The notes below the pieces were generated by a model. The model did not search any database. It worked only from the letters and a program-made list of their open reading frames with translations, and had not been told where the DNA came from. The position numbers and the translations under genes were made by a program. From Patescibacteria group bacterium (GTDB taxonomy: Bacteria; Patescibacteriota; JABMPQ01; JAQVVF01), in NCBI GenBank assembly GCA_041662665.1, contig JBAZSC010000003.1, positions 4,603 to 68,602 of the forward strand: a DNA stretch of 64,000 bases, in the 5' to 3' direction. Below are positions 17,150-45,360 of this stretch, in pieces (positions within the stretch are counted from its first letter, which is position 1; the number at the start of each line of letters is the position of its first letter).

Positions 17150-17746
17150 ATGGCTAGAAATAATAGAAAATTTGGAAGAGATAAAAATGAATTTGATCAA
17201 CAATTAGTTGATATTGCTAGAGTTACTAGAATTGTTGCTGGTGGACGTCGTTTTAGATTTAGAGCAACAATTGTTATGGGTAACAAAAAAGGTATGGTAG
17301 GTATGGGAATGGGTAAAGGCGGAGATGTATCAACTGCAATTGGAAAAGCAGTAGCTATTGCAAAGAAAAATATGATTAAAGTTTCTATTGTTGATAACAC
17401 TATTCCACACGAAGTTTGGGTAAAATATTGTGGTGCAAAAGTATTTTTGAAGCCTGCGAAAGCTGGTACTGGCGTTATTGCTGGCGGAGCTGTTCGTACA
17501 GTTATGGATTTAGCTGGTATCAGAAATATTACAGCAAAGCAATATGGTTCAAATAATACTCCGAATAATGCAATGGCAACTTTGATTGCTTTAAAAGGAT
17601 TGAGAAAACCGGAAGAGATTGCAGAAGCTAGAGGTAAAAAGGTTGAAGATTTAGTTGGCAAGAAACGTGAAGAAAAGAAGGTCGAGGTTAAAGAAGTAAA
17701 GAAAGTAGCTGAAGTTAAGAAACCGGTTAAAACTGTTAAAAAATAG
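17150..17746 (+). CDS. rpsE: 30S ribosomal protein S5, with a ~40-aa Lys/Glu/Val-rich C-terminal extension
   Basis: S5 core (RVTRIVAGGRRFRFRATIVMGN, GTGVIAGGAVR). Confidence 0.93.
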   Translation: MARNNRKFGRDKNEFDQQLVDIARVTRIVAGGRRFRFRATIVMGNKKGMVGMGMGKGGDVSTAIGKAVAIAKKNMIKVSIVDNTIPHEVWVKYCGAKVFLKPAKAGTGVIAGGAVRTVMDLAGIRNITAKQYGSNNTPNNAMATLIALKGLRKPEEIAEARGKKVEDLVGKKREEKKVEVKEVKKVAEVKKPVKTVKK

Positions 17747-17832
17747 ATATTAAGATATTTGAAATTAGATATTAGATATTAGGAGATTTGAAACCTAATT
17801 ACCTAATAAACTAATACAACTAATTAACTACG

Positions 17833-18339: not shown

Positions 18340-18453
18340 AATATTGAATATTAGATATTGAGATATTTGGAAATTCGGATATTAAAAAATCGACTAGTTA
18401 TGCAAGTTGAGTTGTAAGTTTTTAAATTTTTAGTTTTTTATATTTTTATACGC

Positions 18454-19734
18454 ATGTTTGAGAAGATAGCCCAAATTTTTAAAATAAAAGAACTACGAAA
18501 GAAAATTTTTTTCGCAGTTTCTCTTTTAATTGTGTTTAGACTTGCAGCTCATATTCCAGTTCCTGGTGTTGATGCAGCTGCATTAAAAAGTTTTTTTGAA
18601 GGCAATCAAATTTTTGGTTTATTAAACATGTTTACTGGTGGTGGCATGGAAAACTTTTCAATTGTTGCGATGGGCGTTGGTCCTTACATTACATCTTCGA
18701 TTATTATGCAGCTATTAGTGATGGTTGTTCCTGCTTTGGAAAAAATGCAAAAAGAAGAAGGTGAAGATGGCAGAAGAAAAATGAATCAAATCACTAGATG
18801 GTTAACAATTCCTTTAGCTGCTTTGCAATCTTATTCAATGATTGTGTTGTTACAAAAATCAGGTCAAAATATTTTAGGTGATTTGGATCCTTTTAAATTA
18901 GTAACAATGATTGTGACATTGACTGCTGGAACGATATTTTTGATGTGGTTAGGCGAATTGATAACTGAAAAAGGAATTGGAAATGGTGTTTCATTAATTA
19001 TCTTTGCTGGTATAGTTTCAGCAATACCTATGGCACTTCAGCAAACGTTTGTAAATTTTGAGCAATCGAAGGTAATTGAACTAGTTATTTTCGCAGTTGT
19101 AGCAGTTGTGGTTATTGCTGGTATTGTTTTTATAACAGAAGGACAAAGAAATATTCCTGTTAATTATGCGAGAAGAGTTCGAGGAATGAAAATGTATGGT
19201 GGAACATCTTCACATTTGCCATTGAAAGTTAATCAAGCTGGCGTTATTCCAATCATATTTGCGATGTCATTAATGTTGTTGCCAGGCATGATTGCTAACT
19301 TTTTGGTTAATGTAAATAATGCGATGGTTAAAGATATTGCACAGAATGTTGCTGATTTATTTAATAATAATTTGTTTTACGGCGCAATATATTTTGTAAT
19401 GGTTATTTTCTTTACTTATTTTTATACTGCAGTTACTTTTGATCCAAAACAAATTTCTGAACATTTGCAAAAACAAGGTGGATTTATTCCAGGAATTAGA
19501 CCTGGTACTCATACAAGAGAATATTTGAATAAGACGATGACTAGAATTACTTTAGCTGGTTCATTTTTCTTGGGCCTTGTTGCAGTTTTGCCTTTCATAA
19601 TGAAAGCAGCATTTGATGTGCCATCATTAGTAATTGGCGGTACTGGAATTTTGATTGTCGTAAGTGTTGTAATTGAAACTGTCAGACAAATTGAATCAGA
19701 AATGGTGATGAGAGACTATGAAAGCTTCTATTGA
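18454..19734 (+). CDS. secY: Preprotein translocase subunit SecY
   Basis: 426 aa, 10 TM helices, in the conserved position after rplO. Confidence 0.95.
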   Translation: MFEKIAQIFKIKELRKKIFFAVSLLIVFRLAAHIPVPGVDAAALKSFFEGNQIFGLLNMFTGGGMENFSIVAMGVGPYITSSIIMQLLVMVVPALEKMQKEEGEDGRRKMNQITRWLTIPLAALQSYSMIVLLQKSGQNILGDLDPFKLVTMIVTLTAGTIFLMWLGELITEKGIGNGVSLIIFAGIVSAIPMALQQTFVNFEQSKVIELVIFAVVAVVVIAGIVFITEGQRNIPVNYARRVRGMKMYGGTSSHLPLKVNQAGVIPIIFAMSLMLLPGMIANFLVNVNNAMVKDIAQNVADLFNNNLFYGAIYFVMVIFFTYFYTAVTFDPKQISEHLQKQGGFIPGIRPGTHTREYLNKTMTRITLAGSFFLGLVAVLPFIMKAAFDVPSLVIGGTGILIVVSVVIETVRQIESEMVMRDYESFY

Positions 19735-19811
19735 TTTCTCTAAATTAAAAATTTTGCAATCCAAAATTTTTAATCTCTAATACGACTAATGAATCTCTAA
19801 TATTTTTAAAT

Positions 19812-19838
19812 AATGAAGGTGGAAGCCTTCTTTTTTCT
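19812..19838 (+). terminator. Rho-independent terminator after secY
   Basis: tgaaggtggaagccttctttttt. Near-duplicate of the terminator at 20630. Confidence 0.55.
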
Positions 19839-19890
19839 TGTCTATTTTTTTTGGGAATGCTATATTAGAAGTGAAGTTAATTATAATTTT

Positions 19891-20223
19891 ATGAGTAAAC
19901 AAAAAAAGTTAAAAGAACTAGAAGTGATTACAAAAAGAATTGTTAAGAATTATGCTCCTGAAAAGATTATTCTTTTTGGATCGTATGCTTGGGGTAAGCC
20001 GACAGAAGACAGCGATTTTGATTTAATGATTATAAAAAAGAATAAAAAAAGTGGTAAGGAAGGATTTTTTGAGGAAAATATGAAAGTGAGAGATATAATT
20101 GATGGTGAATTAGCGATTGATGTTTTAATACATACGCCAGAAGAAATTAAAAAAAGGTTGGACATGGGGGATTTCTTTTATGACAATATAATAAAAAAGG
20201 GAAAATATCTTTATGAAAAGTGA
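19891..20223 (+). CDS. Nucleotidyltransferase-domain protein (minimal nucleotidyltransferase, MNT), antitoxin-type component
   Basis: LFGSYAWGKPTEDSDFDLMII matches the GS...D.D polymerase-beta-like NTase motif. Start moved to the internal ATG because the ORF's 5' part overlaps the secY terminator. Confidence 0.8.
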   Translation: MSKQKKLKELEVITKRIVKNYAPEKIILFGSYAWGKPTEDSDFDLMIIKKNKKSGKEGFFEENMKVRDIIDGELAIDVLIHTPEEIKKRLDMGDFFYDNIIKKGKYLYEK

Positions 20224-20614
20224 TAGGAAAGATAAAGAAAAATTATTTCCAGAATGGTTTAGAAAAGCTGAAGAAGATGAACTTTCGGCTAGAGATATTT
20301 TGAATGATCAGGAAGGAGCACCGAGTACGGTTTGTTTTCTGAGTCAACAAATTGCTGAAAAATGTTTGAAAGGATATTTGGTTTATAAGAAAAATGAATT
20401 TCCTAGGATTCATCTTTTGGATAAATTAATAAATTTATGTCGGGAGATTGATCGAAGTTTTGATGATATAATGAAAGAAGCTAAGTTTTTGAGTGATTTT
20501 TATGTTGCAACCCGTTATCCAGGTGATTTTCCTGATTTTGATTTTAAAGATGCAGAGAAGGCTTTTGAAGCAGCTTTAAAGATTAAGAATTTTGTTTTGA
20601 AAAGGATTAAATAA
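20213..20614 (+). CDS. HEPN-domain protein, partner of the MNT gene
   Basis: ATRYPGDFPD motif typical of HEPN domains paired with MNT genes; 11-nt overlap (ATGAAAAGTGA) with the upstream gene. Confidence 0.75.
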   Translation: MKSDRKDKEKLFPEWFRKAEEDELSARDILNDQEGAPSTVCFLSQQIAEKCLKGYLVYKKNEFPRIHLLDKLINLCREIDRSFDDIMKEAKFLSDFYVATRYPGDFPDFDFKDAEKAFEAALKIKNFVLKRIK

Positions 20615-20629
20615 TTTAGATAATAATAT

Positions 20630-20660
20630 ACTGAAGGTTTTAATACCTTCTTTTTTAAGA
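20630..20660 (+). terminator. Rho-independent terminator after the HEPN gene
   Basis: tgaaggttttaataccttctttttt. Confidence 0.55.
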
Positions 20661-20673
20661 ATAAGAATTTTTT

Positions 20674-21333
20674 ATGCAAAAACAATTATTGATATTATTT
20701 ATGGGACCATCTGGTTCTGGAAAAGGCACTCAAGCAAAAATGATTAGCAATGAATTTGGCTTTAATTATATTGAGATGGGCGGAATTTTGCGTTCAGAAG
20801 TAAAAAAACAGACTGATTTAGGCAAGGAAATTGATATAATTATTCATAAAGAAGGAAAATTGGTGCCTGATTTGATGGTTAAAGAGCTGATTAAAAAAGT
20901 ATTAATAGAAAATGATCATGAAAAAACGATTGTTTTAGATGGCTATCCAAGAACGAGCCAGCAAGTTTTTGATTTAGACGAAATTTTAAAAGCAATGGAT
21001 TTAAATAAAGAAATTGTTGTTTTTAATATTAAAATTTCTGATGAAGAGGCAATGAAAAGATTAACTCAAAGAAGGATTTGTGTAGGTTGTAAAAATGTTT
21101 TGCCTGCTGATTCAAAGGATTTAAATTGTCCAAAATGTGGTGGTAAATTAGAACATCGCAGCGATGATAATCCAGAAAAAATTCAAGAGAGATTAAAATG
21201 GGCTCATGAAAAAGTGGAGCCAGCAATTTTGGAATATAAGAAACGTGGAGTTTTGGAGGAAATTAATGGTGAGCGACCAATTGAGATTGTACATAAGGAT
21301 ATTGTTGGAAGGCTTAAAAATATATTATCATAG
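20674..21333 (+). CDS. adk: Adenylate kinase with a zinc-binding LID
   Basis: P-loop GPSGSGKGTQ and LID CVGC...CPKC. Confidence 0.94.
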   Translation: MQKQLLILFMGPSGSGKGTQAKMISNEFGFNYIEMGGILRSEVKKQTDLGKEIDIIIHKEGKLVPDLMVKELIKKVLIENDHEKTIVLDGYPRTSQQVFDLDEILKAMDLNKEIVVFNIKISDEEAMKRLTQRRICVGCKNVLPADSKDLNCPKCGGKLEHRSDDNPEKIQERLKWAHEKVEPAILEYKKRGVLEEINGERPIEIVHKDIVGRLKNILS

Positions 21334-21371: not shown

Positions 21372-22127
21372 ATGTCTAAAATCATTATAAAGACAGACGA
21401 AGAAATTGAAATAATTCATGAAGGTGGAAGAAAGCTGGCTCGAATTATGGAAATTTTGAAAGATGAAATATCAAGACCTGGATATCTTACAAAAGGATTG
21501 GATGCTAGAATAAATTTGCTGTGCGAAAAATTTGGCGCTAAACCTGCTTTTATGGGATATCGAGGTTATCCGGCAACTGTTTGTCTGTCTTTGAATGATG
21601 AAATTGTACATTGTCCTCCTGGCGACAGAATAATTAAAGAAGGAGATTTGGTTAGTTTAGATTTTGGGTTGAGATATAAGAATTTATATACTGATAGCGC
21701 AATTAGTTTTGGTGTTGGAAAGATGACGCCTTTGGCTGAAAAATTAATTAAAGTTACTGAAGCTTCATTATATAAAGGTATTGATCAAGTGCGTCCTGAT
21801 GGGCATATCGGAGATATTGGACAAGCAGTTTCGCGATATGCTGAAGCTAATGGATTTTCCGTTGTGCGTGATTTGACTGGTCATGGTGTAGGAAAGGAAG
21901 TTCATGAGCCTCCACAAATTTTAAATTATGGCAGAGAAGGTGTAGGACCAATTATGAAAAAAGGAATGGTTTTGGCAATTGAACCTATGGTCAATGTCGG
22001 TGATTGGAGAATAAAGCAAGGTGTTAATGGCTGGTCAATTATGACTGCTGATGGAGAGTTGTCAGCGCACTTTGAACATACTGTTGCTGTTACTGAGGAT
22101 GGATATGAGATTTTAACTCAGCAATAA
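21372..22127 (+). CDS. map: Methionine aminopeptidase type I
   Basis: 251 aa; metal ligands in conserved contexts (DFG..., HGVG, EPMV). Confidence 0.93.
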   Translation: MSKIIIKTDEEIEIIHEGGRKLARIMEILKDEISRPGYLTKGLDARINLLCEKFGAKPAFMGYRGYPATVCLSLNDEIVHCPPGDRIIKEGDLVSLDFGLRYKNLYTDSAISFGVGKMTPLAEKLIKVTEASLYKGIDQVRPDGHIGDIGQAVSRYAEANGFSVVRDLTGHGVGKEVHEPPQILNYGREGVGPIMKKGMVLAIEPMVNVGDWRIKQGVNGWSIMTADGELSAHFEHTVAVTEDGYEILTQQ

Positions 22128-43557: not shown

Positions 43558-45293
43558 ATGCAAAGACTTTGGCAGGTAAAACAAAAAATAAGTGAAGATT
43601 TTATTAATAAATTTCCAGAATTTGATTCTGTGATTTTGCAATTGTTATTTAATAGAGGAATTGATAATCAGAAAAAGATTGATGAATTTTTTAATCCAGA
43701 TTATTCAAAAAATTTATTTGATCCATTTTTATTGAAAGATATGGATCGAGCGGTTGAAAGAATTTTTAAGGCATTAAAGAATAAAGAAAGAGTTGGAATT
43801 TTTGGTGACTATGATGCTGATGGCGTAACATCATCTGTTTTATTAACAGAATTATTTAAAAAAATTGGTTTGGCTGGGCAAGTTTATATTCCTGATCGAG
43901 TCTCTGAAGGCTATGGAATGAATAAGAAAGCAATTGATTGGCTAGCAAAAAAAGATATTAAATTGATTGTCAGTTGTGATTGTGGTGTTTCAAACAAGGA
44001 AGAAATTGATTATGCAAAAGAAAAATATGGAATTGATTGCGTAATTACTGATCACCATCATGTTCCTATAGATTTTGATAAAAAATATATTGTTGTTGAC
44101 TCAAAAAGAAAGGGTGATAAATATCCATATAAAGAGTTGGCGGGTGTTGGCGTTGTTTTTAAGCTGGCTCAGGCATTGATCACTCGAATTAATTTTCGAA
44201 TAAAAGCGAATGAATTTTCGAATGTTAAACTTGAAAATGGTTGGGAAAAGAGTTTGCTTGATTTAGTGACGATTGGCACGATTGCGGATTGTTCGCCGAT
44301 TATTTCGGAGAATAGAACATTGGTGAAATATGGATTAAATATTATAAAAGAGACTGAAAGAATTGGTTTGCAAAGTTTGATGCAAGTAGCTTGCGTTGAT
44401 CCAAAATTAATTAATAGCGACAGAATCGGTTTTGCAATTGCGCCAAGAATTAATTCAGCTGGCAGAATGGATCATGCTTCGGCATCGTATAAACTTTTGA
44501 TTACAGAAGATTTGGAAAAAGCAGTTTGGTTGTCTAAAAAAATCGATAAGACAAATTCAAGCCGGCAATCTTTGACAAGTAAATTAGTTGATGAGGCAAA
44601 AAAGAAAATTGGCGATGTCAAAGATCAAAAAGTATTAATGGCATCTGGTGGAAATGGCCTTTGGGCGTTGTAGGTATTGTGGCTGGCAGGATTTGTGAAG
44701 AATATAATCGGCCAACTTTGATTTGTGGTAAGGGCTTGATTGAATCTGTTGGATCAGCTAGAAGTATTCCTGCTTTTGATATTATTGACGCTATTTCTTC
44801 TTGTAAAAATTTGTTATTAGAATATGGCGGACATAAACAAGCAGCTGGCTTTTCTTTGAAAAATGAAAATTTTGAAAAATTTCATAAAAAATTAGAAAAA
44901 ATTGCAACAGAAAAAATAGATGAAAAAGATTTACAGCCAGTAATTGAAATTGACAGCGAAGTTGATTTTAAAGATGTGAATTGGAATTTGTATGAAAGAT
45001 TATTAGATTTTGAACCTCATGGAATTGGAAATCGAAAGCCGGTTTTTTTGGCAAAAGATATTCAAGTTATTAATGCTTATCCTGTTGGCAAAACAAAAAA
45101 GCATTTAAAAATGAAAATTAAGTCTAATTCCGATAGTCGGATTTTTGATGTGATTGGTTTTAATCATGGACATAGAGTAGAGGAGTTAAATAAAAAAGGT
45201 AAAATGGATATTGTTTTTAATTTGGATTGTAATGAATGGAATGGAGAAAAGATTTTGCAGTTGAGACTTGTTGATTTTAGGATTTCACTCTAA
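43558..45293 (+). pseudogene. recJ: Single-stranded-DNA exonuclease RecJ, split into two ORFs (43558..44673 and 44661..45293) by a frameshift near 44650-44662
   Basis: N-terminal ORF carries DHH motifs (GDYDADGVTS, ITDHHH). C-terminal ORF carries DHHA1 (GGHKQAAGF). The canonical ...WxPGVVGIVAGRI junction appears as WKWPLGVVGIVAGRI in the shifted frame. Could be a real pseudogene, a sequencing error or a slippage site. Confidence 0.7.
44181..44230. repeat. TCGAAT-rich repeat inserted in-frame within recJ
   Basis: cactcgaattaattttcgaataaaagcgaatgaattttcgaatg encodes ITRINFRIKANEFSN. Its 22-nt core aattttcgaataaaagcgaat recurs at 45296 just after the recJ stop. Confidence 0.65.
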
Positions 45294-45295
45294 TA

Positions 45296-45360
45296 AATTT
45301 TCGAATAAAAGCGAATTCATTAAAAAATTTCTATTCAAAATTTTTTAATTCGAATGATGT
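45296..45360. repeat. TCGAAT-rich repeat, intergenic copy
   Basis: aattttcgaataaaagcgaattcattaaaaaatttc...aattcgaatg. Confidence 0.6.

Follow-up and report, generated by a model that had tools for sequence, protein, structure and literature searches.

The question raised by this locus is how two small genes came to lie between secY and adk, a junction that is normally tight in Patescibacteria, and what keeps them there. The locus belongs to a 64,000-nucleotide stretch from a Patescibacteria group bacterium (GenBank assembly GCA_041662665.1, contig JBAZSC010000003.1, positions 4,603 to 68,602 of the forward strand). This whole stretch is referred to as the window, and positions are those of the window unless a related locus (L and a number) is named. 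The window has ∼30 % G+C, and its + strand holds nearly all long open reading frames (ORFs). The two genes encode a minimal nucleotidyltransferase (MNT) and a HEPN protein. They had been taken in an earlier account, made from the letters only (the sequence-only reading), for a mobile toxin–antitoxin (TA) or abortive-infection module inserted inside the ribosomal super-operon. The history favoured here, at a probability of about 0.6, is that of a long-resident Class II HEPN/MNT cassette that uses a captured adk promoter and would for this reason be difficult to lose; MNT would nucleotidylylate a tyrosine of HEPN. The features of the junction are the following:

18454–19734, + strand: secY (PF00344 SecY, 384 bits, 8e-115), the upstream flank; the spc-type ribosomal cluster ends with secY here.
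19815–19836, + strand: left hairpin (hp1), GAAGGTGGAAGCCTTC plus T6; GAAGGT-GGAA-GCCTTC, -7.7 kcal/mol; terminator-like, after secY.
19838–19866, + strand: promoter-like site P2, TTGTCT-17 nt-TATATT with a TG extension, preceding MNT.
19891–20223, + strand: MNT, minimal nucleotidyltransferase of 110 amino acids (aa) with GSX10DXD; putative antitoxin or modifier.
20213–20614, + strand: HEPN, 133 aa, classical PF05168 / HEPN-T type, with R101-Y-P-G-D105 and H67.
20633–20656, + strand: right hairpin (hp2), GAAGGTTTTAATACCTTC plus T6; GAAGGT-TTTAAT-ACCTTC, -7.6 kcal/mol; terminator- or attenuator-like, at the 3′ end of the cassette.
20657–20673, + strand: adk leader, AAGAATAAGAATTTTTT, resembling the last ∼20 nt of the adk leaders of the related loci L003 and L004.
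20674–21333, + strand: adk (PF00406), the downstream flank, followed by map.
21372–22127, + strand: map (PF00557), 3′ of adk.

MNT and HEPN are the only coding content of positions 19735–20673 and overlap by exactly 11 nt (20213–20223); no second MNT or HEPN gene was found in the 64-kb window. The mechanical ORF for MNT (19813–20223, 136 aa) begins within hp1, before the predicted promoter; for this reason, and because MNT homologues are 105–112 aa long, the start at 19891 is the likelier one. In Pfam, MNT matched Polbeta (PF18765, 44.7 bits, cut-off 26.9, 1.5e-11) and NTP_transf_2 (PF01909, 42.4 bits, cut-off 21, 9e-11), and its translation holds an exact GSX10DXD motif, as defined by Yao et al. 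(2020, PMC7641770): G30-S31, ten residues, D42-F-D44. HEPN matched PF05168 over profile positions 3–115 of 117 (87.1 bits, cut-off 22, 1.3e-24). This was its sole match among the HEPN families of Pfam, with none to DUF86/PF01934 or PF08780. The pair as first described (GS...D.D and ATRYPGDFPD proteins with an 11-nt overlap between secY and adk) was confirmed in its coordinates, motifs and Pfam assignments, both the nucleotidyltransferase and the HEPN profiles scoring above the Pfam cut-offs.

The HEPN motif R101-Y102-P-G-D105 lies within ATRYPGDFPD. In an alignment of 29 homologues H67, Y97 and R101 are invariant, Y102-P103-G104 near-invariant and D105 mostly conserved; no histidine follows R101 at a distance of 4–6 residues, so that the Rx4-6H RNase motif is absent. 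An AlphaFold (AF2) model built on these 29 homologues (predicted local distance difference test score, pLDDT, 86) matched classical HEPN domains at template modelling (TM) scores of 0.67–0.81, including 4NQF, with sacsin HEPN at 0.8; the HepT toxin structures 7AE6/7AE8/7AE9 were matched weakly (TM 0.35–0.47, E>0.08). The closest solved relatives, 1WOL, 1UFB and TM0613, are structural-genomics proteins without an assigned function. In every homologous locus that holds both genes, MNT lies upstream of HEPN and in the same orientation.

Class II HEPN/MNT modules combine a PF05168 HEPN with a PF01909 MNT; the HEPN lacks RX4HXY and has a conserved tyrosine, and GSX10DXD is kept in MNT (PMC7641770). 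In the HEPN-T family (PF05168) an aspartate replaces the conserved histidine, and a conserved histidine is found elsewhere (Anantharaman et al. 2013, PMC3710099). The window pair resembles both descriptions: both Pfam families are above threshold, MNT with GSX10DXD lies upstream of HEPN and overlaps it, and HEPN has no RX4HXY, a conserved tyrosine, R...D for R...H and a conserved histidine elsewhere. By all features that can be checked from sequence, the pair is a Class II HEPN/MNT module and falls outside the characterised type VII HepT/MntA family (Class I). Class II has been reported as most prevalent in archaea and hyperthermophiles, and as being without biochemical study (PMC7641770). What sets the window pair apart is its location, in a reduced Patescibacteria genome and between an essential gene and the promoter of that gene.

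The junction was compared among relatives by a SecY-based scan of species-representative genomes and metagenomes, which gave 120 loci and 95 junctions with both genes placed; the 80 metagenome loci, none with more than 65 % identity, served for junction statistics only. The window SecY itself had no exact match on record. The gap between secY and adk had a median of 19 bp over the 95 Patescibacteria junctions and exceeded 400 bp in nine of them, in agreement with the conserved junction assumed in the sequence-only reading. Apart from the window's own lineage, no MNT or HEPN relative was found at these 95 junctions. The informative relatives are:

L004 (SecY 96 %): a 130-bp cargo-free spacer with one hairpin (GAAGGTGGAAACCTTC plus T6), a promoter-like block, a leader and adk.
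L003 (SecY 94 %): ∼0.6 kb of other cargo, in which a conserved non-coding stretch precedes a Zn-ribbon ORF that evolves fast.
L005 (SecY 82 %): Zn-ribbon cargo as in L003, the two ORFs being 33 % identical.

MNT–HEPN is accessory, since L004 is empty and L003 and L005 carry different cargo; the objection that all relatives might hold the two genes as ancestral content does not apply, a cargo-free relative having been found. The entry points differ, the Zn-ribbon cargo lying upstream of the promoter block and MNT–HEPN downstream of it. As far as the sequences tell, MNT–HEPN is a real accessory insertion, but an old one, at a spot that varies locally, and not a recent transposition.

The L004 spacer consists of hairpin, T-run, CTTGT, ∼14 nt, GAATG-TATATT, leader and ATG. 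It aligned end to end with the left spacer of the window up to the MNT ATG (score 57, 0/2000 shuffles), and with the right spacer across the hairpin only (10/2000 shuffles). Homologues of the P2 block directly precede adk in L004 and, on the right of the cargo, in L003 and L005; the block is also found upstream of MNT in two further lineages, L134 and L135. Because the L004 spacer aligns end to end with the left flank, MNT–HEPN appears to have been inserted between the former adk promoter and leader and the adk ATG. This ATG now lies 17 nt past hp2, and a promoter scan gave no promoter-like site between the two. Since a terminator and a promoter follow secY in this clade, the cassette heads the adk–map unit at an operon boundary. 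Contrary to the super-operon placement of the sequence-only reading, it therefore does not interrupt a co-transcribed ribosomal operon, which makes its position somewhat less surprising. In this arrangement MNT–HEPN would be transcribed from the former adk promoter, and adk–map would be expressed through read-through of the weak hp2 (-7.6 kcal/mol). Loss of the cassette together with the promoter would then silence adk, and this coupling would constrain loss.

The near-duplicate hairpins at both ends of the module were also confirmed, although they had been placed 2 nt too early. Both consist of a 6-bp stem followed by T6 and have GAAGG/CCTTC in common; their loops differ. The pattern GAAGG-N2-10-CCTTCTTTT occurs at two sites in the 64-kb window, hp1 and hp2, against 0.01 expected, and at least two sites were seen in 0/100 shuffles; on the + strand, six further hairpins of terminator-like form have stems unrelated to this one. 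Within 1.04 Mb of related loci, GAAGG/CCTTC hairpins with a T-run are confined to the secY–adk junction of the window's clade, and MNT–HEPN homologues in other contexts have no GAAGG-type hairpin downstream. The number of copies follows occupancy, with one in the empty L004 and two around MNT–HEPN in the window and around the Zn-ribbon cargo in L003 and L005; the L003 cargo is bracketed by a 27-nt repeat with 85 % identity (0/2000 shuffles).

Compared with the hairpin of L004 and the left hairpin of L003, hp1 has one changed stem position (G.U wobble), and over hp1, the T-run and the -35 region the window and L004 show one difference, while the synonymous divergence (dS) of the flanking genes is 0.7–1.4. 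Compensatory stem changes were found as well (T-A to C-G at the sixth pair, G-C to A-T in the right hairpin of L005). Near-identity despite such divergence of the flanks, together with the compensatory changes, argues that the hairpins are maintained by selection as functional elements. hp2 aligned with the L004 hairpin at p about 0.005. A local alignment of the left and right spacers of the window was not significant (135/2000 shuffles), the shared part being the stem and T-run (18 nt). At the hp2 position, L135 and a third further lineage, L043, have related but drifted hairpins (AAGGGCTT... and GGAAGGCA..., in L043 and L135, respectively), and the hairpin upstream of P2 in L134 and L135 is a different one (CTCCGA..TCGGAG). 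Most likely, to judge from these comparisons, hp2 is a local copy of hp1 that was made when cargo entered the spacer, and not a target duplication of the transposase type. Candidate routes are a local duplication at insertion, a single-crossover integration of a circle that carried a copy of the spacer, or another. Of the target duplication proposed in the sequence-only reading, the non-random duplication of the hairpin and its link with occupancy were retained; differing loops, a left copy that does not abut the module and the 135/2000 left–right comparison speak against the remainder.

Protein searches located the same cassette beside adk in at least these three further lineages. In L043, MNT is 87 % identical, HEPN 77 % and Adk 79 % over 82 residues, and the adk ATG has a related hairpin 10 nt upstream. 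The MNT of L134 is 92 % identical; before it comes the same promoter block, and before this block lie other small genes and the different hairpin. In L135 (383–830) MNT is 76 % identical with an altered C terminus and the same promoter block, HEPN is deleted, and a GGAAGGCA..TGCCTTC hairpin followed by adk comes next; a 12-nt remnant, AAGGTTTTAATA, is identical to the 5′ arm and loop of window hp2. L043 HEPN (255–656) has RFSGG in place of the near-invariant RYPGD. The window copy differs from those of L043, L134 and L135 by a dS of 0.4–1.2 and a ratio of nonsynonymous to synonymous divergence (dN/dS) of 0.06–0.15, which is comparable to adk (MNT 0.06–0.13; HEPN 0.15 against L043). As dS and dN/dS match those of adk, the cassette has long co-diverged with its flank under purifying selection; by this measure it is resident beside adk for long enough that synonymous sites approach saturation. 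Decay that begins with the toxin is the expected order for a TA module, and the loss of HEPN with MNT kept in L135, as well as RFSGG in L043, would fit this order. In Adk, the window groups with L003 and L004, and L135 and L043 branch off outside. For this reason the simplest history is one gain that was followed by loss or replacement in L003 and L004; homologous-recombination exchange across the flanks is an equally possible one. The order within the inner group is conflicting, with 10, 7 and 3 informative sites among the window, L003 and L004.

A fresh insertion of a mobile TA module, with target-site duplication of the secY terminator, would account for two identical-stem hairpins that chance would hardly provide (0.01 expected), for the empty and single-hairpin state of the close relative L004, and for the 27-nt repeat around an unrelated cargo in L003. 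It is nevertheless improbable. Besides the differing loops, ∼55 nt homologous to the L004 adk promoter and leader separate hp1 from the MNT ATG. No transposase or integrase was found in or beside the inserted segment, which is flanked by secY and adk, and the terminal inverted repeats were not significant: the best flanking pair had 28/37 complementary positions in the best 37-nt window, against a mean of 25.6 (sd 1.5) in shuffles. Searches of viral contigs and a phage collection with HEPN gave zero matches, and the only plasmid relatives were HEPN and nucleotidyltransferase pairs with 30–34 % identity on Bacillus plasmids. The same-site copies in other lineages stand at dS around 1, so that any duplication must be ancient and would be visible only through selection on the hairpins. 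None of these results speaks for recent mobility of the module. Two further candidates were dropped: hairpin ends of the IS200/IS605 type, because the empty site keeps the hairpin, and an integron attC site, of which neither an integrase nor an attC-like core was seen, without a formal test. Rather unlikely, although less so than a fresh insertion, are hp1 and hp2 as independent intrinsic terminators, similar by convergence or chance, with hp2 arriving together with the cassette. The left–right comparison of the window with its 18 common nucleotides, the drift of the hairpins behind the cassette in L043 and L135, and the different hairpin before P2 in L134 and L135 would all suit this explanation. 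It leaves unexplained why the motif is restricted, in the window and across the 1.04 Mb of related loci, to the junction of this clade, why the other terminators of the window have unrelated stems, why homologous modules elsewhere lack such a hairpin downstream, and why an unrelated Zn-ribbon cargo is bracketed likewise.

The pair might also be no TA module, being instead a two-subunit nucleotidyltransferase of the kanamycin-nucleotidyltransferase or HI0073/HI0074 type that is kept for a cellular function, with HEPN as the substrate-binding subunit. This role was the original proposal for HEPN/MNT pairs (PMC3710099). It agrees with the missing Rx4-6H, with a modelled fold whose nearest matches, sacsin among them (TM 0.8), are non-catalytic HEPN domains of the classical type, and with purifying selection on both genes over a long divergence. 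The window pair shares with these enzymes a Pol-beta-fold nucleotidyltransferase with a four-helix HEPN-like partner, and HI0073 (1NO5) was a weak match; it differs in consisting of separate small genes with a patchy and decaying distribution. This explanation is held to be unlikely, because the distribution is patchy even among close relatives, and because the order of decay in L135 (HEPN lost, MNT kept) and L043 (degenerate motif) is toxin-first. Moreover, homologous modules occur in a TA island (L136, with a MazE–PIN pair and a fused MNT-HepT) and beside a PemK toxin (L047), and the conserved polar residues R101, H67 and D105 are compatible with an alternative active site.

In the long-resident, promoter-capturing Class II cassette that is preferred here, MNT probably nucleotidylylates HEPN, by analogy with type VII HepT/MntA, where oligo-AMPylation by MNT neutralises a toxic HEPN, and Tyr102 beside Arg101 is a candidate site. 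Nucleotidylylation would restrain a growth-inhibiting or RNA-targeting activity of HEPN, and the pair would act as an addiction or abortive-infection type module. The likeness to HepT/MntA lies in gene order and overlap, in GSX10DXD, and in a tyrosine close to the conserved arginine as putative AMPylation site; unlike HepT/MntA, the window HEPN is not of the DUF86/PF01934 family and has no Rx4-6H, the MntA match is below threshold, and HepT structures are reached at a TM of only 0.35–0.47. The modification of HEPN by MNT is the weakest part of this interpretation and is held with low certainty.

Several observations weigh against the interpretation as a whole. HEPN is devoid of the canonical RNase motif, and toxicity is not on record for any Class II pair (PMC7641770); the toxin label is inferred, since this HEPN class is without the motif. 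The NCBIfam MntA equivalog NF047752 scored 30.5 bits on MNT, below its cut-off of 60. PADLOC recognised MNT only, as candidate system PDC-S09, and left HEPN unmatched; profile scans of HEPN with NCBIfam and PADLOC gave zero matches. L043, L134 and L135 are 1-kb contigs that were placed by 70–82 Adk residues or by MNT alone, and since P2 is preceded by other cargo and a different hairpin in L134 and L135, linkage to secY is unseen there. Promoters and terminators were called by consensus, and hp2 is a weak hairpin. An alternative promoter-like sequence, TTGAAA-16-GATAAT (20597–20624), overlaps the 3′ end of HEPN and is a possible promoter of adk; neither L043 nor L135 conserves it. hp2 may be a convergent terminator instead of a copy of hp1, and the history may be one of ancestral gain with losses or of allele swapping by recombination.

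Accessory-gene hotspots between core genes, and the tandem accretion of non-autonomous elements at one attachment site, are familiar from other genomes; islands that integrate into the 5′ end of dusA restore dusA. Like such hotspots, the secY–adk junction is one spot between core genes with alternative contents (empty, Zn-ribbon, MNT–HEPN, further genes), and its cargoes are separated by repeats derived from local sequence. Unlike hotspot islands, the cargoes are smaller than 1 kb, no recombinase was seen, and the repeats are a terminator hairpin, with or without the promoter, and not an att core.

Other occupants of this junction were recorded. The Zn-ribbon ORF of L003 (7380–7935) and L005 (2060–2666) carries CPKC...CxxC and resembles the TNB zinc-ribbon domain of Cas12f/TnpB below threshold (21 bits, cut-off 26); ∼120 nt of non-coding but conserved sequence lie before it and end in a hairpin and T-run with compensatory changes. 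ORF-poor inserts of 0.5–0.8 kb with a G+C content well above that of the host locus lie between secY and adk in L085 (6276–6788; 0.55 vs 0.39 for the host locus), L078 (6276–6874) and L019 (7276–8069), and may be structured RNAs. Rfam at the gathering threshold gave zero matches in L003, L005, L085, L078, L019, L134 and L135. Among the occupants of the secY–adk(–map) junction in distant Patescibacteria are a PemK/MazF toxin beside an unknown protein of 231 aa, an additional kinase-like gene (AAA_18) and opposite-strand receiver-domain proteins (L031/L105 4995–7170, L058 6588–7184, L025 7969–8532, and the junctions of L028 and L079).

Repeats were also seen in the window itself. Directly 3′ of the secY stop lies one further feature:

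19744–19774, strand not assigned: perfect 13-bp AT-rich palindrome.

It is followed by two copies of AATCTCTAATA (19772–19782 and 19792–19802), 20 nt apart. L003 has a similar palindrome after secY, and the short direct repeats at this position differ in relatives (GAATCTCACGAAT twice in L004, GCTGATTT three times in L003). A 30-nt AT-rich unit (ATTAGATATTAG...ATTTGAAA) recurs at 17735–17793 and 18343–18372, in the spacers that precede rplO (L15) and secY. A 37-nt direct repeat with 89 % identity (44180–44216 and 45285–45321, copies 1105 nt apart) has one copy inside ORF 43558–44673 and the other at the end of ORF 44661–45293.

Homologous modules with ∼65 % identity directly precede essential genes in other Patescibacteria as well. 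Between rpoB and rpoC, L047 (2300–5900; also L048–L050) carries a 181-aa gene, MNT–HEPN (64–66 % identical to the window), a 207-aa gene and a PemK toxin. The rpoC leader and first 13–14 codons form a 68-nt unit that occurs there four times (3289, 3655, 5047 and 5696), and because of this repetition MNT of L047 begins with the RpoC N terminus, MRVLDLESIRIKLA. In L044 (2400–4560) the HEPN stop lies 1 nt before the ATG of a prfB-like release-factor gene with a CTT TGA C +1 frameshift site. A 38-nt unit of hairpin and TTGACA is present at 2426 and 3587 (95 % identity), before a 236-aa ORF and before MNT, and a large serine recombinase is encoded 3 kb downstream. In L133 (1–3750) a direct repeat of 93 nt lies on either side of MNT–HEPN; the two copies have 76 % identity and resemble a tRNA 3′ half at their end (TTCGAGTCCAGGCACGTCCACA). 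Behind this repeat-flanked module comes a further MNT gene. Upstream of the module, two GIY-YIG genes lie in a perfect 300-nt tandem duplication and are separated by 55-nt copies (four) of the 3′ half of tRNA-Met. In L136 (1–4000) a Class II homologue accompanies the MazE–PIN pair and the fused MNT-HepT (Class I); this cluster, which precedes genes for type II secretion / type IV pili, has the appearance of a small TA island. Around the modules of L136, L046, L131 and L132, flanking direct repeats were at noise level.

A tentative generalisation, in which little confidence is placed, is that small cassettes (MNT–HEPN, PemK and others) are parked before essential genes in Patescibacteria, with duplication of the 5′ region of the target. 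The duplicated region would be terminator, promoter and leader at adk, and leader and first 13–14 codons at rpoC in L047. A cassette of this kind would take over the expression signals of the essential gene and so become hard to delete, and arrays would grow by repeated insertion at the same point. The secY–adk cassette, the rpoB–rpoC array, the module before prfB and the module between tRNA-like 93-nt repeats would be instances.

Class II HEPN/MNT pairs number in thousands, and the class itself is already known; what is new here is a further member in an unusual and informative position. The window pair is a compact and clearly selected example, and its HEPN-less (L135) and degenerate-motif (L043) relatives indicate residues of interest. 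Its location outweighs its identity, as the cassette lies between an essential gene and the promoter of this gene, and relatives lie before rpoC and prfB. If the arrangement is general, it would be relevant to the persistence of selfish or defence modules in genomes that otherwise undergo reduction, and it would affect the annotation of operons and promoters in Patescibacteria.

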